Source of the DNA: an uncultured Phycisphaeraceae bacterium | Lineage (GTDB): Bacteria; Planctomycetota; Phycisphaerae; UBA1845 | Assembly: GCA_964424105.1 (NCBI GenBank) | Contig: CAYRHJ010000028.1 | Coordinates: 12,679 to 76,678, forward strand | Length of the DNA stretch: 64,000 nucleotides | Direction of reading: 5' to 3' | Translations under genes and position numbers: made by a program | In this document: positions 2,670 to 61,415 of the stretch, piece by piece | Layout of the letters: every line of letters begins with the position of its first letter | Position numbering within the stretch: position 1 is the first letter of the stretch | Notes under the pieces: generated by a model | Told to the model about the DNA's origin: nothing | Seen by the model: the letters and a program-made list of their open reading frames with translations, nothing else | The model's database searches: none

Positions 2670-4493
2670 TTAGGGCGTTGTACGTTCAGAAAGGCCTGCC
2701 CCTTTTTCCAACCGAATCGACCGATTCGCGTCGAAATTCGTAAACGTTTCCACGTCTCCGTTGGGCCAGTGCACGGTCATCCGATCGATGCGCGACGCTG
2801 TACCCAATCCGAAGTGGGCTACGGGCGGTCCGCTGCACAGGTAGCTGAATCCGCGGTTGATATCGCGACGCTGCTGCACCGCGCCGATCGAAACGACGAT
2901 TTGAGCACCGATCGCGTCCCGACCGATCAAGGGATCGACGGCTCGCACCGTGAGCCAATGGCTCGATGGGCTGTCGTTGCGAAACAACCGCGCCGGGCCC
3001 CCGCCGTTGGTCACCAATAGATCGACATCGCCATCGGCGTCCATGTCAGCCGCGACCAATCCGCGACTGACCTCCGCTTGGGAACACAGGGAACCGGCCT
3101 GGGCACTCACGTCCTTGAATCGGCCGCCGCCGTCATTGGCGAACAGCAGGTTCGGCTCGGCATAGGGTTTCCAATGGTCGGAAACGGTGGCTGCGGAAAT
3201 TGACACGTTCCGCCGCACACGCCCGTTCACGACGACCAAATCCAGATCCATGTCATGGTCGTAATCGAAAAACGTAGTGCCGAACCCGGTAAACGCCATG
3301 CTCGGGGCGCTGAGACCGGCAGCCACGGTCACGTCCGCGAAGGCCAAGGCACCGCCCGCGGCGGATGAAATGCTGTCATTGCGGTACAGCGTGTTGTGTT
3401 CCAGAACCAGATGGGTCATGAACAGATCCAAATCACCGTCGTTTTCCACGTCGCCCAGGGTCACGCCCATGCTGGCCTCCGATTCACCGAAGGCGTTGAC
3501 GGCGCACCCCGCCACCATGGCCACGTCTTCAAACATGCCGTCCGCATTGTTGATCCATAGCTGATTGGGTTCGGCGTCGTTAGCGATGTACACGTCCGGG
3601 CGGCCGTCCTGGTTGAAATCGGCGATGCCCAAGCCCAGTCCTCGACGGGGAACGTCGTGAAGACCGACTTGGCGACTGGCGTCCGTAAACGTTCCGTCAC
3701 CGTTGTTTCGAAAGAGCACGTCCGCCACGCCGCGAAACGTCAGCGGTCCGGGGTATTCAGGCCTGCCGCCGTGATCCCGCGCGTTGATTTTGAGATCGAG
3801 TTCCAGATAGTTGACGACGAAAATGTCCAGATGACCATCGGCGTCGAAGTCGAAAAAGTCGGCGGAGGAAGCCCACGCGGCATTGCGGATGCCGGCTGAT
3901 TCGGTGACGTCGGTGAACGTTCCATCGGCGTTGTTCCGGTACAGCGCATCGGGACCGTAATTCGTAACATAAACGTCGTCATCCCCGTCGTTGTCGATGT
4001 CGCCGACCGCTACCCCCATGCCATATCCGGAATCGCCCAGACCGCTGGATGCCGTCACGTTGACGAATCGCGGTGACGTCGGTCCGCCGTCGTTTCTGTA
4101 TAGCTGGTTGCGGATCGGCTCGTTTCCCGCGTCGGATTCCGCCAGCCACGCGCCGTTGATGAAATAGACGTCGTAATCGCCGTCGTTGTCCATGTCGAAG
4201 ATGGCTGCCCCGGGCGACATGCTTTCGGGCATGAAATACCGCGAGCCGCCGGCCCCGAAACCGGGATGATGTACAAAATCCAAGCCGGCCTGTTCGGTGA
4301 TTTCGGTGAACAGCGGGGCTGTTGTAGAACGGGGACCGGATGGTGCCTGTTGATCAGACTGCCGCCGGCACCCCGCCGTGGCGTGCAGTAAAATAGTCGC
4401 TGACACGATGAAATGGGTGGTGCTAAGTCGATGAACTCGTCCGACTCGACTCGAACAGGTGAGCGAGGCGTCCGTAGGCGGGAAGGCGTACAT
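2670..4493 (-). CDS. CRTAC1 family protein (FG-GAP/VCBS repeats plus C-terminal ASPIC/UnbV domain), probable lipoprotein
   Basis: Repeated DxDxDGxxD motifs (DMDNDGDYD, DIDNDGDDD, DFDADGHLD, DFNQDGRPD); C-terminal DAIGAQIVV...AHFGLG...VHWPNG; N-terminal hydrophobic stretch ending AGC. Start uncertain. Confidence 0.9.
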   Translation of the reverse strand: MYAFPPTDASLTCSSRVGRVHRLSTTHFIVSATILLHATAGCRRQSDQQAPSGPRSTTAPLFTEITEQAGLDFVHHPGFGAGGSRYFMPESMSPGAAIFDMDNDGDYDVYFINGAWLAESDAGNEPIRNQLYRNDGGPTSPRFVNVTASSGLGDSGYGMGVAVGDIDNDGDDDVYVTNYGPDALYRNNADGTFTDVTESAGIRNAAWASSADFFDFDADGHLDIFVVNYLELDLKINARDHGGRPEYPGPLTFRGVADVLFRNNGDGTFTDASRQVGLHDVPRRGLGLGIADFNQDGRPDVYIANDAEPNQLWINNADGMFEDVAMVAGCAVNAFGESEASMGVTLGDVENDGDLDLFMTHLVLEHNTLYRNDSISSAAGGALAFADVTVAAGLSAPSMAFTGFGTTFFDYDHDMDLDLVVVNGRVRRNVSISAATVSDHWKPYAEPNLLFANDGGGRFKDVSAQAGSLCSQAEVSRGLVAADMDADGDVDLLVTNGGGPARLFRNDSPSSHWLTVRAVDPLIGRDAIGAQIVVSIGAVQQRRDINRGFSYLCSGPPVAHFGLGTASRIDRMTVHWPNGDVETFTNFDANRSIRLEKGAGLSERTTP

Positions 4494-4506: not shown

Positions 4507-6330
4507 CTAGGACGTTGCGGGCGGCCTTTTCAGATGAATTCCCGTCGCCCGCTGGTAGGCGTGGGCCAGCCCCAGCAACTCCGTCTCGCCGAAGAGTCGG
4601 CCAACAAACGTGATGCTCGTCGGCGTGCCGTCCTCGCTGCGGAACCCGTTCGGAAGGACGACGCAGGGGTGGCCCGTCAGATTGGTCAGTAACAGGTTGT
4701 CACCGCCGAACGACGGACAAACGTACACGTCAATATCCGACATGACCCGTTGCATTTCACGCATCAGAAGCGTACGAATTCGGTTGGCTCGTAAATACTC
4801 GACCGCCGGGATGAGCTGTCCCTGACGCAAGACGTTGGGCCAGGCGTTCTTGATTTGTCGAACGAGCAAATCGTCTTTTCCGCTGCGCGTCAGTTCGTCG
4901 AACGCGGTGGATGCTTCCGCCGTCAAGATGAGCGAGAGCGGTTTCACCGGCAGCGAGTCGGGCAGTTTGATGCGGATCAGTTCGATTCCCGCGTCTTTCA
5001 AAACGCTCAGCGTCGCCAGGTCGAACTTCCGCTGTTCGCGGACGCGGGCCGCGGCGCTTTCATCTTCCCCACCCGAAGCGGTGTCTTGTTCGAACAGGTC
5101 CTGCACGTAACCTACGCGAAGCGAGCGAACGTCACGGCGCATGGGCCAATGAAACGGAGCGTCCACCGCCGACGCGTCGAGATGGTCCGCGCCGTGAATC
5201 GCGCCGAAAACGAGCGCACAATCTTCGACCGTGCGGGCGATCGATCCGATCTTGTCCATGGACCACGACAGCGCCATCGTGCCAAATCGGCTGACCCTTC
5301 CGAACGTTGGTCGTAACCCGGTGGCGCCGCATCGAGAACATGGAGATACAATGCTGCCCCAGGTTTCCGTGCCGATGGCGAACGCGACCAGCCCAGCCGC
5401 CGTGGCCGAAGCGGAGCCGGCCGACGACCCGCTGGATCCCTGTTCGACCTTCCAGGGGTTCTTGGTCGTACCGCCATACCAAACATCTCCCCAAGCCAAC
5501 GCCCCCACGGACATCTTAGCCAGCAGAACGGCGCCGGCTTTTTCCAGGCGGGCGATCACGGTGGCCTTTTCGGGACGGACCTGATCCTGATACGGCTTGG
5601 CGCCCCAGGTGGTCTTGGCGGCGGGATGGGCCAGAATGTCCTTCGCTCCCCAGGGAATGCCATGCAACGGTCCCCGGTAATGTCCCGCAGCCAACTCGCG
5701 ATCGGCCTGCGCAGCCTGCGCCAACGCGGAGTCTTTCATGAACGAAATCACGCATTCCAGCGCAGGATTATGTTTTTCCAAACGGTCCAGATAATTGCGT
5801 GTCAATTCAACGGACGATAACTCGCGACGACGGATCCAGATGGCCAGTTCGCTCACCGATGCAAACGCGACGTCGGTTGCGGAATTGGGCTGGGCCACCG
5901 CATCATCGTCATCCAGCCGGACCACGGAGTGCTCGACGGATTTTGGTATCGACGCGAGCGGAGCGGGGTCGAAAGACAACGCCGGCGGGATGGAATTGTC
6001 GAGCGCCACCGCCCGCAGTTCATCATAGCCGGCCAACGCGTCTTTCAGATCGTCCAGCATCAGTTGACGATCAGCCTCGGTCAGTTCCAAACCGGAAATC
6101 CATTCGGCTTGACGAATCATCTCGGCGGTGACGCGAGATTGGCCCTCGACTTGGGCGGCCACCGCACGCTGCAACACGGCTGATCCGACGCCCAGAACAG
6201 CCAGGGACTTCAACACTTCCCGGCGATGCAGCGGGGCGGAATCTCGAGCGGAATTGTCAGTCGTTTTGTTGTTCAACCTTGGCGACAATTGATTTACCAG
6301 CATGGGCCATTCATTACCAGTCTGGGACAT
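4507..6330 (-). CDS. Amidase signature family enzyme (GatA-like) with Tat-type signal peptide
   Basis: GIPWGAKD Lys, GSSGSSAGSA and GTETWGSI amidase-signature motifs; N-terminal HRREVLKSLAVLGVG twin-arginine signal. Confidence 0.88.
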   Translation of the reverse strand: MSQTGNEWPMLVNQLSPRLNNKTTDNSARDSAPLHRREVLKSLAVLGVGSAVLQRAVAAQVEGQSRVTAEMIRQAEWISGLELTEADRQLMLDDLKDALAGYDELRAVALDNSIPPALSFDPAPLASIPKSVEHSVVRLDDDDAVAQPNSATDVAFASVSELAIWIRRRELSSVELTRNYLDRLEKHNPALECVISFMKDSALAQAAQADRELAAGHYRGPLHGIPWGAKDILAHPAAKTTWGAKPYQDQVRPEKATVIARLEKAGAVLLAKMSVGALAWGDVWYGGTTKNPWKVEQGSSGSSAGSASATAAGLVAFAIGTETWGSIVSPCSRCGATGLRPTFGRVSRFGTMALSWSMDKIGSIARTVEDCALVFGAIHGADHLDASAVDAPFHWPMRRDVRSLRVGYVQDLFEQDTASGGEDESAAARVREQRKFDLATLSVLKDAGIELIRIKLPDSLPVKPLSLILTAEASTAFDELTRSGKDDLLVRQIKNAWPNVLRQGQLIPAVEYLRANRIRTLLMREMQRVMSDIDVYVCPSFGGDNLLLTNLTGHPCVVLPNGFRSEDGTPTSITFVGRLFGETELLGLAHAYQRATGIHLKRPPATS

Positions 6331-6915: not shown

Positions 6916-7096
6916 ACGCCTTCATTTCGTGTTTCCCGCCGAACACTCGCCATCGGCGGCGACCCGCGAAGCCCCGCCCGCCTGTGCGTGTACGCACGCA
7001 GACAGGCCAGGAAGCGGTGGGCGTATCCGGCCTAGACCCGCCCCCTCACGGTCGCGGCTCGGTTCAGACAAGTGTTTCCGATTCTGATACACCACA

Positions 7097-9385: not shown

Positions 9386-9913
9386 TCAGTTCTGGCTGGC
9401 GATCAGCAGTTTCGTGCGACGATTCAATGCGGACGCCCCGCCGTAACCAAACTCTGCAACCAATACCTTGCCTTCCCGATCTATCCAGAATGTTTGCGGA
9501 ACGCCACTCAATTCGAAATCGTCGGTGAACAATGACTGGCCGTTGAGCAACACAGTATGTCGCAGTTTCAAGTCCTTGACAAACGATTCCACGGCTTCCT
9601 TGCTCTCGTCCCAGGCGTTGATGGAAAGGACAACCAGTCCATCATCTTTGTACCTGTCTGCCAGACGGGTCAGGTGCGGAGACTCCGCACGACAAGGCGG
9701 TCACGTCGAGCCGAAGAACGACAGGACCACCGGCCGACCTCGCAACCCGCGGAGCGTGACCTCCTCGCCGTCCATCGACAGAAGTGCGAAATCCGGCGCA
9801 CGTCGCCCTTTCCACTTCTGTTCCAACTGCCGGCTCATCGCGAACGTACACCCGACGGTGGTCAGCAAGCCGGCCGCGCACAAAGCTGACAAAATTGATC
9901 GGTATCGGTTCAT
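9386..9913 (-). CDS. TlpA/peroxiredoxin-like thioredoxin-fold protein with in-frame UGA (probable selenocysteine, UxxC)
   Basis: ORFs 9701..9913 and 9386..9592 are in one frame, separated only by TGA at 9701-9703. Read-through gives APDFALLSMDGEEVTLRGLRGRPVVLSFFGST-U-PPCRAESPHL...GVPQTFWIDREGKV (175 aa), a complete TlpA-like fold. Confidence 0.85.
9674..9703 (-). promoter_or_regulatory. Putative bacterial SECIS element directly 3' of the UGA codon
   Basis: Minus strand reads TGA ccgccttgtc GTGCGGA gtc TCCGCAC: a perfect 7-bp stem with a G-first apical loop 17 nt after the UGA. Confidence 0.7.
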
Positions 9914-10009
9914 CTTCCGCCCTTCAACATGGAAATTCCCGCCCGTCGTCTGGCGTTCAAGAGCGTAACAGAATCCGCGGGAATAGGAAAGTTCGCGTCC
10001 CCGGGCGAA

Positions 10010-12915: not shown

Positions 12916-13145
12916 CAGAGGGAGCGGTCTCCTGATCTGTTCGTACAATTTCAGATCCGCGACCAAGTCTTTTACGAGCCGCGAGCGCAAAGCGAGCGGT
13001 CTAACAATTTCAGAGCCGCGTCGGGTGGCCCACCTCCTTGGGAGGTGGGGGACCCGATGACCATAGCGTGTGCCCAAATGTCGCGCGCCTTGTAAACGGC
13101 CGGGTGGCCCACCTCCTTTGGAGGTGGGGGACCCGAGATGACAAT
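12916..13145. repeat. Composite cluster of REP-like palindromes (BIME-like)
   Basis: Contains gagccgcgagcgcaaagcgagcggtc (12976), two aatttcaga(t/g)ccgcg copies and two cccacctcc-tt(t/g)-ggaggtggg palindromes (about 13022 and 13102); the latter recurs at about 61060. Confidence 0.75.
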
Positions 13146-27728: not shown

Positions 27729-27787
27729 CCGGCGCAAGCCGGAGTCCAGGCAGCGTTCTTCTGGATTCCGGCGTTCGCCGGAATGAC
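27729..27787. repeat. dRS3/CIR-like palindrome family (gtcattccggcg...gccggaatcca)
   Basis: ctggattccggcgttcgccggaatgacg at about 27760; related copies at about 18735, 44077-44130 and 60845-60892. Confidence 0.75.
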
Positions 27788-27805
27788 GGATGCGGGGCGT
27801 ACGCA

Positions 27806-42400: not shown

Positions 42401-42470
42401 GCGACCGACCATCCTTTACGAGCCGCGACCGACCATCCTTTACGAGCCGCGAGCGCGAAGCGAGCGGTCC
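42401..42470 (+). repeat. 24-bp tandem duplication ending in a REP-like unit
   Basis: gcgaccgaccatcctttacgagcc at 42401 and 42425, followed by gcgagcgcgaagcgagcggtc. Confidence 0.8.
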
Positions 42471-42674
42471 CCCAGAAAGCGCACTCACTTCTCACCCCCG
42501 ACCCTGCACGCGACCAATGAGGGAGCGTGCAGCATGGCAAGCGGACGGGGCAGTCCATGGCACGCGGATCGCGCCACTACCTCTAGAAACCAACCGTTCA
42601 GGGAGCGGTCTTCCGAACGGTCGAGCCGGGACGATCGTATCGGATTGACGCGAAGAATGGGGTGCGTCGAACCA

Positions 42675-43999: not shown

Positions 44000-44076
44000 C
44001 AATATTTTCCTTGCGTTGGCCTGACCAATAAGACTGCCCAATCGCCAAGTTACCGAGCCACAACCCCCTGCACACG

Positions 44077-44243
44077 TCATTCCTGCAAACGCCGGAATCC
44101 AGACCGCCATGTCCGTCATTCCGGCGAACGCCTCTTTACGAGCCGCGAGCGCAAAGCGAGCGGTCCCCCGCGCCGCCCGCTGACCGTCACTCCCGCGCAA
44201 GTCCGCCTCTTTACGAGCCGCGAGCGCAAAGCGAGCGGTCCCC
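44077..44243. repeat. Composite REP cluster between tig and clpP
   Basis: A dRS3-like gtcattcc..gccggaatcca unit plus two ctctttacgagccgcgagcgcaaagcgagcggtcccc copies (about 44133 and 44207). Confidence 0.8.
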
Positions 44244-50070: not shown

Positions 50071-50304
50071 ACGAGCGGTCCTCACAACCCCCGAGCGCGT
50101 CTTCACGAGCCGCGAGCGCGAAGCGAGCGGTCTTTCCGACCCCAGACCGCGTCTTTACGAGCCGCGAGCGCGAAGCGAGCGGTCTTTCCGACCCCAGACC
50201 GCGTCTTCACGAGCCGCGAGCGCGAAGCGAGCGGTCCCCACAACCCCCGAGCGCGTCTTCACGAGCCGCGAGCGCAAAGCGAGCGGTCCTCACAACCCGC
50301 GTCC
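50071..50304 (+). repeat. 52-bp-period tandem array of REP-like units
   Basis: ctt(c/t)acgagccgcgagcgc(g/a)aagcgagcggtc at 50101, 50153, 50205 and 50257, separated by 20-nt linkers of only two types. Confidence 0.9.
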
Positions 50305-54425: not shown

Positions 54426-54625
54426 GCCGACTATCTTACGCAAAGGCGGCTGACAACAAAAGAGTACATCATCGATTTGGCAAAGATTTGTCGCCACGCA
54501 AGCCAGGATTCGATGGCCAATCCGCCGGGGTGCCCCATCCATAGCGCAGCGATGGGCGGGGCCCCGCTGATCGGCGTTCGGAGAATTTCGAACACGCCAG
54601 CCACCTCCGTGTTCATCATCGCCCC

Positions 54626-56527
54626 CTACTGCGTCGATGGCTGGTAATTGTTCCGATCCCGGATTCGCACCGGGTCAAGCCATTGGCCAATCGCCTTGGC
54701 TACGAGTCCGTCGTTAAGCTCCCGCACGATGCGTCCCCGCTCCTGTTTGAATCGTTCTTCGTCCAAAGGGCGCCGCTCGGTGAATTCAACGATGGCCACG
54801 ATGGCTTTGTCGTCCATCGGAATGACTCGCACCTTCTGACCGCTTGATTCCATCGCAAAACATTTTTCGACGAAATCCGGCGTAACCACCCCCAGTCCGC
54901 GCACGAAGATATTCTCCGTCATGGACGTGGTCGGGATCGACCGATTCACGCGGCGAGCTAATGGATCGGGCGTGAAATAGCCCGGCGCCGGATCGGGCAG
55001 GCTCGAAACGCTGGGGCTGTTTTGCCAGGTGGCAAACAATCCGTCATCCGTGATCAAATAGGCGAAGTCCTCCGCCAAGGTCAGAACCTGCTCGTAACCA
55101 CGTTGCATGCGAATGTCGTCGATGACCTTCTCCCGCACCTCCTCGAGCGATTCCCCAGGACCCGGCGGTATCACTTCCAACACACGATAGATGTACGTTT
55201 CGTTGTCGGTGTTGGCGTACCAGATGGACGAGGACTGACCCAACGCCAGATACGTCGCCGTATCGACCGCGGTGTCCAACGGCATGGACTCGACGCCCTG
55301 CACGTGAAAAACGACGTTTCGAAACGTTCGCCGATCGGTGCCGATCTGCGGACGGCTCGCTCCGATGCCCGGCAATTGAAACGCCTCCTCCTTCGTGAAG
55401 TGCTTCGTCGTTCCAATCGTGACAGCCCCGCCGAAACGCAGGTTGGCAGGAAGACGATCCAATACCTTCGAATAGTAGTCTTCGCCAAGCAGTTCTGCCG
55501 GCGGCACGGGATACCCGTCGTCACCCACCGGCAATCCAAACCAAGGCTCGCTCAACTCCTTGACCAGCCAACTCGCGATCTTAGCCACCTCGTCGATGCC
55601 CATGACTCGGCGAACTTCCCGCACCGCCACGGCTTGTGCCTCTTCAAACGTCGCAAAATACGGCGATGGGTCTTCATCTTCGCCCGCCGTCGGCGGCGTC
55701 GTAGGGTTGGGACGAGCGAACATCGCGTTGTTTCGATTCGCCCGCCAATAATCCTCCGCCTTTCTCAGCAGCGTGTTTTCGCGGACGATCAGGTTCTTCG
55801 CGATGACCGCCGGGTCGATCTTGAAGTATTGAATCTTGACCTTGGCCGGCTGGTAATAGCCGAACAGAACCCCGCCCCCCGGCACCGATTCACGATAGGT
55901 CTCAAAATGCTCCTGAATTTCAGCTTCCTCGATCACTTCGTTTCGGTCTACCAACGACCGCGCATCCAACTTCACCAGATTAATCTGAACCGTTTCCAAC
56001 TGATCGCGAGCCGCAACCCGAATCTCCGCCTCGCTGGCCGTCTCCGCCCCGACCGTGAATCGGAGCATCTGAAAAACCGACATGAAATTACCAAGCGAGT
56101 GATAAATAAAATCAGATTTTATGTTTCGTCGAGCGGCGAGTACTTCTACAGTTTCAAGTGTCAGTCCCAAATTCGTCACGAAGGCTTCCACCTCGACCTG
56201 CCGAGGCTTCATTCCCAAACCATTCGCTTCGCGTGTCAGCAGAATCCACTCCATGATCCCCAGCGGCTGGGCTTGGGCACGCAGGCCGGAAAATGGCCAC
56301 GGATTTCGCCAATCCAAGCCGACCAGCTCAAGCATCTCCGTTTCCAATCTCGCCACGATCTGGTCGTCGGCGAGAATGTCTCCCAATTGACTTTTCGCGA
56401 TTAGTTGGTCCCGGAGGGTCGGGTCTACCAGCGACATCAATGCCGAGCCACCCAGCCAGACAATGAGCAACCCGGCCATGAATACCGCCAGCAGCTTGCG
56501 ATTGTGTTTTCGAAAAAACTTCATCAT
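54626..56527 (-). CDS. PpiD/SurA-N-like membrane-anchored periplasmic chaperone
   Basis: MKFFRKHNRKLLAVFMAGLLIVW N-terminal anchor, V.I..V...A and EIQEHFE..R..Y..P.KVKIQY patterns typical of PpiD; no clear parvulin motif. Confidence 0.7.
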   Translation of the reverse strand: MMKFFRKHNRKLLAVFMAGLLIVWLGGSALMSLVDPTLRDQLIAKSQLGDILADDQIVARLETEMLELVGLDWRNPWPFSGLRAQAQPLGIMEWILLTREANGLGMKPRQVEVEAFVTNLGLTLETVEVLAARRNIKSDFIYHSLGNFMSVFQMLRFTVGAETASEAEIRVAARDQLETVQINLVKLDARSLVDRNEVIEEAEIQEHFETYRESVPGGGVLFGYYQPAKVKIQYFKIDPAVIAKNLIVRENTLLRKAEDYWRANRNNAMFARPNPTTPPTAGEDEDPSPYFATFEEAQAVAVREVRRVMGIDEVAKIASWLVKELSEPWFGLPVGDDGYPVPPAELLGEDYYSKVLDRLPANLRFGGAVTIGTTKHFTKEEAFQLPGIGASRPQIGTDRRTFRNVVFHVQGVESMPLDTAVDTATYLALGQSSSIWYANTDNETYIYRVLEVIPPGPGESLEEVREKVIDDIRMQRGYEQVLTLAEDFAYLITDDGLFATWQNSPSVSSLPDPAPGYFTPDPLARRVNRSIPTTSMTENIFVRGLGVVTPDFVEKCFAMESSGQKVRVIPMDDKAIVAIVEFTERRPLDEERFKQERGRIVRELNDGLVAKAIGQWLDPVRIRDRNNYQPSTQ

Positions 56528-60420: not shown

Positions 60421-60656
60421 CAATCATGGTCCACATAGATGTCTTTCGTCGAGAAGTCACGGGGGAGCGGCGGAAGGTCGAGTCCTTCAGCGAGATCGTC
60501 AAGCCACCGGTCAGCATCGTCGATGGTTTGCGGGCCGTTGGTGCCGGCAAAGTGACGCTTGAGGTACTCCTCGACGGTGAGGCCGAGGGCGGCGGCGTAG
60601 TCGGCAAGCGCCTTGGCCGTTTGCTCGTCGAGTTGGATCGTTGTCGCTGGCGTCAT
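60420..60656 (-). CDS. Probable VapB-type antitoxin (ribbon-helix-helix-like)
   Basis: TIQLDEQTAKALADYAAALGLTVEEYL followed by an acidic C-terminus; TGATG overlap with vapC; GAGG RBS. Confidence 0.8.
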   Translation of the reverse strand: MTPATTIQLDEQTAKALADYAAALGLTVEEYLKRHFAGTNGPQTIDDADRWLDDLAEGLDLPPLPRDFSTKDIYVDHD

Positions 60657-60810
60657 GTATCGGAACCTCATGAATGCGTTAGACCCGCAACCCTGAAAGG
60701 TCGGCGGGCACCGCGTTGCCTATCCCAATGATACCATGCCTCGGGCGAGGAATCACGCGGCTTGGGGGCGATATCAGGGTCGTTCAATTTTCGGAATCCC
60801 CCACAACAGT

Positions 60811-61095
60811 TCCGCGAGCGCGAAGCGAGCGGTCCCCCGCGCTCCGTCATTCCGGCGCGCTCCGTCATTCCGGCGAAGGCCGGAATCCAGTCCGTCGTCC
60901 GTGTTTCGCCCACCCCTTAATGAGCCGCGAGCGCGAAGCGAGCGGTCTTCTATTCCAACAATAACACAGCCGCGACCGCCTGCCTGTGCGTGTAACGCAC
61001 GCAGACAGGTCAGGCAGCGGTCTTCTCGTCCCACCTAATCCGATCCTTGATCCTGTCGGGTGGCCCACCTCCTTTGGAGGTGGGGGAGCCGATGA
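60811..61095. repeat. Composite cluster of four palindromic repeat families
   Basis: Two gcgagcgcgaagcgagcggtc units (60812 and 60921), dRS3-like gtcattccggcg units, cctgtgcgtgtaacgcacgcagacagg (also at about 6980) and cccacctcctttggaggtggg. Confidence 0.8.
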
Positions 61096-61415
61096 CTAGA
61101 CCGCGTGACCGAATGTCGCGGATTTTGCAAACGTGCGGACCGCCGACCGGTCCGCATTCATCCTGTCAATCTTGTAAATCCTGTCCAATCTTCCCGCGTG
61201 GCCCGGCGGCGATGATAAACCCGCAGTTGACTTGCATGCCCGAAATTCTCCGAACGCCGATCATCATGACCCCATCCGTCTCCGCGCGATAAATCGAATA
61301 AATCGTTTGAAGGCTCGTTGATCGAGGATTTTCCACCGATAATTTCAGAACGCCCACCGTGGGCCGCGGGCATCGATTCCCCAGAAGATTTCAATCGCGA
61401 ATCAGGTGACGATCG

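Follow-up and report, generated by a model that had tools for sequence, protein, structure and literature searches.

A gene of Phycisphaerae for a putative TlpA-like lipoprotein, interrupted by an in-frame UGA and predicted to encode a selenoprotein with a U-P-P-C active site

The minus-strand region 9913..9386 of the window, which denotes the whole 64-kb stretch of DNA that was analysed, very probably represents a single selenocysteine (Sec)-decoded gene, whose product would be an envelope lipoprotein of ~17 kDa with a U71-P-P-C74 active site. It has the features by which selenoprotein genes are recognized, namely an in-frame UGA at a position where homologues have Cys, flanked by conserved sequence on either side, and a SECIS-type stem-loop with a G in the apical loop just 3' of the UGA. 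The original prediction of a hidden, exported TlpA-like selenoprotein with a U-P-P-C site is supported by the recurrence of the TGA in other genomes, by the SECIS-type hairpin and its compensatory changes, and by the presence of selA/selB genes in two metagenome-assembled genomes (MAGs) that harbour the TGA form.

Gene structure and predicted product

Direct translation of the minus strand from 9913 to 9386 gave 175 codons with a single in-frame TGA, codon 71, at positions 9703-9701. The full read-through coding sequence (9386..9913) starts with ATG at 9913-9911 and finishes with TGA at 9388-9386, and a Pfam match extends across its one internal TGA. It reads MNRYRSILSALCAAGLLTTVGCTF...VVLSFFGST-(TGA)-PPCRAESPHLTRLADRYKDDGLVVLSINAWDE...GVPQTFWIDREGKV...ASQN-(TGA), the context of the internal stop being VVLSFFGST-(TGA)-PPCRAESPHL. 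Translation thus confirmed the initial claims that the TGA at 9701-9703 is codon 71 and that the frame stays open to 9386. In the ORF listing the read-through gene appears as two ORFs of 70 and 68 aa, and the same 70-aa/68-aa split is found in the public gene call on a contig identical to the window (L001). All features of the gene described below are on the minus strand.

Residues 1-21 (MNRYRSILSALCAAGLLTTVG, 9851..9913) can be read directly from the sequence as a hydrophobic signal peptide, and the window N-terminus ends in TVG-C, in agreement with the signal- or lipoprotein-like segment (LLTTVG-C) noticed at the outset. Cys22 (9850-9848) would probably carry the lipid and form the N-terminus of the mature protein, as a signal peptide with a lipobox-like ...[LA][AST]G-C end starts most of the 41 orthologous TGA-form frames, with the Cys at the same place. 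The lipobox region of the window protein, L-T-T-V-G-C, has a Thr at position -3 and is non-canonical with respect to [LVI][ASTVI][GAS]C, whereas canonical L-A-G-C or L-T-G-C sequences are found in many orthologues. Judging from these signals, the product is most likely anchored in the envelope as a lipoprotein and oriented towards the periplasm.

With Cys put at codon 71, the protein matched the Pfam families AhpC-TSA (PF00578; E-value 5e-22; 78.5 bits for a cut-off of 26) and Redoxin (PF08534; 6e-21; 75.2 bits for a cut-off of 26.6), both above the curated thresholds and both across the TGA (residues 36-150/153). The best relatives of solved structure are those of ResA (4nmu and 1st9; E-values of 2e-20 to 5e-19 over residues 31-156), and the TlpA/ResA-like thioredoxin-fold domain occupies residues 36-150 (9464..9808). 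In the closest full-length homologues, at 42-51% identity, the codon-71 column holds the Cys of CPPC or CAPC motifs. Similarly, alignment with the 15 best database homologues placed the stop at the first Cys of CxxC, with P73, C74 and the cis-Pro P139 conserved, and the UGA (9701..9703), whose Sec reading would provide the first position of U-P-P-C, is aligned with Cys in all Cys homologues. The suggestion that the TGA sits at the first Cys of the TlpA motif therefore holds, and the agreement goes far beyond what chance would produce. Cys74 (9692..9694), the putative resolving cysteine of U-x-x-C, is encoded by TGC or TGT in 41/41 TGA forms. The cis-Pro139 of the thioredoxin fold (9497..9499), in the segment GVPQTFWID, is an invariant column in two alignments.

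The redox motif U71-P-P-C74 and the invariant cis-Pro P139 place the product in the TlpA-like thioredoxin-fold superfamily (cd02966; Pfam AhpC-TSA/Redoxin), and the E-x-P motif of the TlpA/ResA/DsbE group is present downstream of U-P-P-C. The predicted product is a ResA/TlpA/DsbE-like thioredoxin-fold oxidoreductase of the lipoprotein type with a U-P-P-C site. It shares with the ResA (4nmu, 1st9), CcmG, DsbE and TlpA proteins the W/F-x-x-x-C-x-x-C-x-x-E-x-P signature, the cis-Pro loop and an N-terminal membrane anchor, but they have a nucleophilic Cys where the window protein would have Sec. It falls well short of the NCBIfam cut-offs for ResA (NF002854, 92.5 vs 170), TlpA (NF047696, 42.6 vs 230) and DsbE(CcmG) (TIGR00385, 44.7 vs 123), and it is thus a superfamily relative rather than an orthologue of these proteins. 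Neighbourhood clustering linked no cytochrome c maturation or Sco/Cox genes to it. NF041054 is likewise a model for TlpA/ResA-like selenoproteins whose active-site motif contains Sec, but it is 354 residues long and has a WAxxUGC motif instead of U-P-P-C; we rejected this assignment, the score being 49.7 for a cut-off of 300. A peroxiredoxin (PxxxTxxC/U) was rejected too, as U is preceded by F/W-A/G-x-G/T, in which no Thr is conserved at -3, and UxxC is present.

From its sequence, the protein would be exported and then face the periplasm, attached by a lipid at Cys22. If it behaves like other members of the family, the U71 selenolate would attack substrate disulfides and Cys74 would resolve the mixed selenosulfide; re-reduction would presumably be performed by a membrane electron carrier of the CcdA/DsbD type. 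The neighbouring genes differ in every locus and give no indication of a partner: de novo clustering of the genes within 6 kb in 41 neighbourhoods detected no family in at least 4 loci besides the gene itself. The original suggestion that the enzyme might act for the adjacent S9 peptidase found no support and was rejected, since that neighbour is conserved in 0/39 related loci. We similarly discarded a functional link to the FHA-GAF-PP2C neighbour, as the phosphatase is found near only two of the 39 related loci.

The codon-71 TGA and its hairpin in related genes

The GTDB species-representative genomes were scanned with the clade alignment, which yielded 80 loci, and codons were extracted after local tblastn. 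The codon-71 column is TGA in 39 of them, from 38 MAGs that are all Planctomycetota and mostly Phycisphaerae. With the window and a JGI metagenome contig (L002), the TGA loci number 41 in total. TGC or TGT is found at this column in 47 loci, 12 of which are from Planctomycetota, and all the non-Planctomycetota loci are Cys forms. The tBLASTn-type check of codon 71 recommended together with the original prediction was thus favourable to it, with no TAA or TAG at this column among the 41 TGA and 47 Cys loci.

Each of the 41 read-through frames contains exactly one internal TGA. Most frames are of ~154-210 residues, a few apparent frames are longer, and two reach 439 and 483 residues. In two deep-branching loci, L043 (U codon 337) and L080 (U codon 381), the Sec domain is at the C-terminal end of a frame of ~440-480 codons, which may represent an N-terminal fusion or a miscalled start. 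The mean pairwise identity of the TGA forms is 57% over the 36 residues that precede the TGA and 47% over the 94 that follow it. Conservation of both halves, together with the invariant P139 and the recurrent TGA, is in line with the earlier argument that a gene with two conserved halves and an intact cis-Pro loop is no pseudogene.

The same TGA was found in two further assemblies. L001, from the Logan assembly of run SRR10083321, is 100% identical to the window over 701 nt including the TGA, and its reads are possibly the same as those of the window. In a collection of 5.8 billion proteins, all matches were Cys forms except for one truncated half, P0016. This 104-aa fragment starts just after the motif, and its contig, L002, reads ...FFAYG-(TGA)-PPCRAEAPHL..., with a second TGA at the codon-71 column and the gene split by the caller like that of the window. 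That gene callers would split such genes, as had been argued, is thus illustrated by both L001 and L002.

Several loci depart from the single-copy U-P-P-C arrangement. In L050 (CAYPXR010000090.1, 9281-10283), a TGA form (TGA at 9452) is directly followed by a Cys paralogue (TGC at 9978), and this tandem could be a selenium-dependent enzyme with its selenium-independent backup. The MAG JAZDKM01 harbours two separate TGA-form paralogues (L034, 4245; L051, 5069), with the C-G variant of the hairpin described below in one and the U-A variant in the other. Two metagenome contigs, L133 and L205, have kept the TGA and the hairpin with a U-x-x-S motif (FWSEH-(TGA)-DVSRAEAPH), the resolving Cys being lost. 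Another one, L094, encodes ASW-(TGA)-PFCGAEAPH and belongs to a different TlpA subfamily.

Folding of the window sequence revealed a 17-nt SECIS-type hairpin (9674..9690) that starts after a spacer of 10 nt (9700-9691) from the UGA. It is a perfect 7-bp helix composed of a 5' arm GUGCGGA (9690-9684), a loop GUC (9683-9681) and a 3' arm UCCGCAC (9680-9674). All 41 TGA forms have GUGCGGA-GNC-UCCGCAC at this fixed distance, almost invariant in nucleotides, their usual loop being GGC. RNAalifold predicted the same 7-bp helix from the 41 sequences and nothing else, with no lower stem, and 99% of the hairpin cells are paired. One of the seven pairs varies (C-G in 35 sequences, A-U in 4 and U-A in 2), so that covariation concerns a single column and six sequences; in these, an Ala-to-Glu or Ala-to-Val change in the 5' arm is compensated by a silent change of the Pro codon in the 3' arm. 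Folding of a 96-nt region gave a stability no greater than that of shuffled sequences (z = -0.5), and the signal is thus the local 17-nt hairpin rather than a large structure.

Synonymous sites in the hairpin are frozen in the TGA forms only. Arg75 is CGT in 34/35 Arg codons of TGA forms and in 2/28 of Cys forms, which have CGG or CGC, and Ala78 is GCT in 38/39 TGA forms as opposed to 4/14 Cys forms (GCG/GCC/GCT). In the TGA forms, Glu77 is GAG and His80 is CAC in 40/41 cases each, while Cys forms use GAG or GAA for Glu. The codons that flank the hairpin vary freely in TGA forms, with 27 TGC and 14 TGT for Cys74 and six different codons for Leu81. Two Planctomycetota Cys forms, L004 and L019, have the identical peptide CPPCRAEAPHL without the hairpin. 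The median minimum free energy of the hairpin segment is -11.0 kcal/mol in TGA forms (n=41) vs -4.7 in Planctomycetota Cys forms (n=12; p = 1e-5) and -5.0 in the 35 other Cys forms (overall p 6e-13). This contrast between TGA with hairpin and Cys without hairpin is the strongest argument for the element as a recoding signal.

A search for the exact 17-mer in metagenomes returned 120 stretches. TGA is present at -13 in 36 of them, all of which are TlpA-like, and no TlpA-like stretch with a Cys codon at -13 was found among the 120. Without a TGA, the 17-mer GTGCGGAGGCTCCGCAC is also part of arrays in which GTGC-N9-GCAC hairpins follow each other at intervals of a few nt, on contigs of ~40% GC. 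Such arrays, of several conserved context classes, are present in L091, L092, L095, L097, L137, L138 and about 80 other metagenome contigs, and they match no Rfam family. We considered them unrelated to the TlpA-like gene.

The minimal SECIS of E. coli is an upper stem-loop of 17 nt, 11 nt from the UGA, with a G in the loop (PMC8659212). The window hairpin resembles the fdhF SECIS of E. coli in its 17-nt length, its spacer (10 nt instead of 11) and the G that starts the apical loop, and its GUC loop is reminiscent of G23-U24-C of fdhF. It differs by the absence of a bulged U, by a loop of 3 nt instead of 4 and by the absence of a predicted lower stem. Based on this comparative evidence, the hairpin 10 nt past UGA71 would act as a bacterial SECIS element and recruit SelB-GTP-Sec-tRNA(Sec), such that Sec is inserted and translation does not terminate. 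The end TGA of the gene (9386..9388) is read as a stop and no hairpin is found 3' of it; at this second UGA, codon 176, translation would terminate.

We also looked for further selenoprotein genes. A GC3-based scan of the window had no discriminating power, and a generic UGA + hairpin scan gave 20 matches, most of them due to chance. The strongest of these, with a TGA at 61168 on the minus strand, was rejected because it is part of a short dispersed repeat and its frame does not resemble a protein. Searching for the family-specific loop motif elsewhere in the related loci gave no convincing second gene family. In L062, from a Ca. Sulfopaludibacter MAG, an in-frame W-(TGA)-GAAAPESPE is found at about 2848 on the plus strand, with a hairpin CCGGA-GUC-UCCGG 17 nt after the TGA and 142 open codons downstream; this could be a different selenoprotein gene. 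The short dispersed repeats of the window are 23-90 nt long and 77-100% identical. Their main stretch, 60424-61415 (992 nt), consists largely of such repeats and contains no ORF of at least 150 aa. Other copies are located near 6974-7018, 12976-13136, 27761-27790, 42437-42473, 44075-44240, 50101-50291 and 54541-54626, and those of 50101-50291 form a tandem run with a period of ~52 nt.

Selenocysteine machinery and alternative explanations

In the 64-kb window, ARAGORN and Rfam identified tRNA-Leu only and no tRNA-Sec, and tblastn with SelA, SelB and SelD of E. coli and SelA and SelB of Phycisphaerales detected no selA, selB or selD. An NCBIfam scan of the window ORFs of matching sizes returned Fic, aldolase and other unrelated families, and no sel gene. 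We recovered ~7 kb past the left end of the window from Logan contigs (SRR10083321), and they contain no sel genes by Pfam label. No tRNA-Sec was found in 50 related loci and five selB-selA loci, and neither selC nor selD was seen in the examined Planctomycetota loci.

Genes for two components of the Sec machinery were found in MAGs that carry the TGA form. In L024, a Phycisphaeraceae MAG, selA is 5 kb from the TGA form on the same contig (TIGR00474, 578.6 bits vs a cut-off of 267.9). This SelA as a query returned about 8,000 homologues, the best 120 of which are 62-100% identical to it, and every one of the top matches with a source name is from Planctomycetota, Phycisphaerae or Phycisphaerales. 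We inspected six contigs with SelA matches, and all six harbour a selB-selA operon, the SelB-specific beta-barrel and winged-helix domains being present. One of these operons (JBBTCX010000159.1) and the TGA-form locus L010 (JBBTCX010000029.1) come from one MAG. The other five are on contigs of Phycisphaerae/Planctomycetota, one of which is a complete Phycisphaerales genome. One selB-selA operon is on a contig of 2,168,828 bp, which is also the length of the contig of the Cys form L033. Thus, a Cys form need not mean that the machinery has been lost.

Two other genes close to selB-selA operons deserve mention. A protein of the FG-GAP/UnbV_ASPIC family is encoded directly upstream of selB-selA in the complete Phycisphaerales genome (L085, 6194-7930; L086, 2771-4507), and the window codes for a 607-aa member of this family with no internal stop (2670-4493, minus strand). 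Among the selenoprotein candidates with split gene calls in planctomycete P1 is also an FG-GAP/UnbV_ASPIC protein (PMC4807772, S9 Table). In L088, from a Planctomycetota MAG, a gene for a 423-aa AhpC-TSA/Redoxin/Thioredoxin protein (4524-5795, minus strand) is located two genes upstream of selB-selA.

Explanations other than Sec insertion were weighed against these data. That a TGC, TGT or TGG codon has mutated or been misread as TGA, leaving a dead gene, would account for the 70-aa and 68-aa halves delivered by gene callers, and the only second assembly with the window TGA (L001) may derive from the same reads. However, 39 further genome loci and 36 metagenome contigs have the same TGA, the hairpin is found only together with TGA among the TlpA-like sequences examined, and the window copy of it is a perfect 7-bp helix. 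In addition, the frame has no other stop or frameshift and the invariant residues of both halves are kept, and we regard a pseudogene or a sequencing or assembly error as extremely unlikely. A somewhat different case is that of a selenoprotein gene left in a genome without Sec machinery, in which translation would stop at codon 71 and produce only a non-functional 70-residue lipopeptide. Repeated Sec-to-Cys conversions in the Planctomycetota clade, and the lack of sel genes and tRNA-Sec in the window and the recovered flank, would be compatible with such a relic. Nevertheless, the window is a small fraction of the genome, and the absence of sel genes there says little. Loss of the machinery should moreover have been followed by drift of the synonymous sites of the hairpin and of the downstream half, or by conversion to Cys, yet the hairpin is perfect and the 104 downstream codons keep all family-invariant residues. 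A relic is improbable on these grounds.

Finally, the UGA might be decoded without selenium, by codon reassignment or by hairpin-stimulated near-cognate read-through with Trp, Cys, Gly or Arg, given that a stable hairpin after a stop codon can generally stimulate read-through. A reassigned code is excluded, as TGA is an ordinary stop: it is the commonest one in the window, where it ends 20/43 long ORFs, and it also terminates the window gene itself and 16/41 orthologues. As for near-cognate read-through, the recoded site is the catalytic Cys column, at which only Sec or Cys would keep the chemistry, the position and size of the hairpin fit a SelB-dependent SECIS, and MAGs with the TGA form do contain selB and selA. 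Selenium-free decoding is scarcely plausible in the face of these observations. Insertion of Sec at codon 71 is consistent with the TGA recurrence, the hairpin and the sel genes alike.

Evolution, relation to known selenoproteins and significance

In a rough neighbour-joining tree, all Planctomycetota homologues form one clade, in which the TGA forms are the majority and include the deepest branches, L043 and L080. Cys forms occur here and there between them. This rough tree and the hairpin sequence common to the TGA forms suggest a single origin of the Sec form followed by repeated Sec-to-Cys conversions. A broader scenario, to which we give slightly less than even credence, is that Sec is ancestral and still dominant in this lipoprotein across Phycisphaerae and neighbouring Planctomycetota. 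One 17-nt SECIS element would have been inherited almost unchanged across the entire radiation and would have fixed the R-A-E-A-P-H peptide, the Cys forms having arisen by repeated conversion. If so, the periplasmic thiol-disulfide chemistry of a major environmental lineage would be selenium-dependent, and the element would represent a very compact natural SECIS for work on SelB recognition.

TlpA-like UxxC selenoproteins are an already listed predicted family (PMC13188914). Proteins of that family have a TlpA-like/AhpC-TSA thioredoxin fold with Sec first in UxxC, and Cys homologues are far commoner, as is the case here. Compared by description only, the present clade differs in being specific to Planctomycetota/Phycisphaerae, apparently of the lipoprotein type and endowed with a nearly invariant SECIS-type element of 17 nt. 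For Planctomycetes, both Sec-insertion genes and selenoprotein candidates of the thioredoxin fold with split gene calls are on record (PMC4807772). Those of planctomycete P1 from Porphyra (S9 Table), a member of the same phylum, include a 'thiol-disulfide isomerase-like thioredoxin', a 'peroxiredoxin' and 'AhpC/TSA'. Like the window gene, they are calls split at an in-frame UGA with Cys in the closest homologues, and Sec-insertion genes are present. Again by description only, the Porphyra planctomycetes are outside Phycisphaerae, with P2 being a Rhodopirellula and P1 and P3 belonging to undescribed genera, and no SECIS element was reported for the two 'thiol-disulfide isomerase-like' candidates. 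Our literature search retrieved no paper on selenoproteins in Phycisphaerae and none that describes the TGA-form clade. As TlpA-like UxxC selenoproteins are an established predicted family, the gene is very probably a genuine but not a surprising selenoprotein gene, of an already known kind, and what is new is a well-populated clade.

The finding reveals no new mechanism and no new protein class. Its interest lies in part in the hairpin: the coexistence of TGA with hairpin and Cys without hairpin in a single clade of proteins amounts to a clean natural experiment on how a SECIS element constrains coding sequence, and a 17-nt element with three pair variants (C-G, A-U and U-A) is a convenient substrate for studies of SelB-SECIS recognition. 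Given the split calls in L001 and L002, and the presence of only Cys forms and P0016 in the 5.8-billion-protein collection, most annotations probably lack an envelope redox enzyme that is abundant in Phycisphaerae. Selenium supply would affect envelope redox homeostasis in this lineage, which is common in soils, sediments and groundwater.
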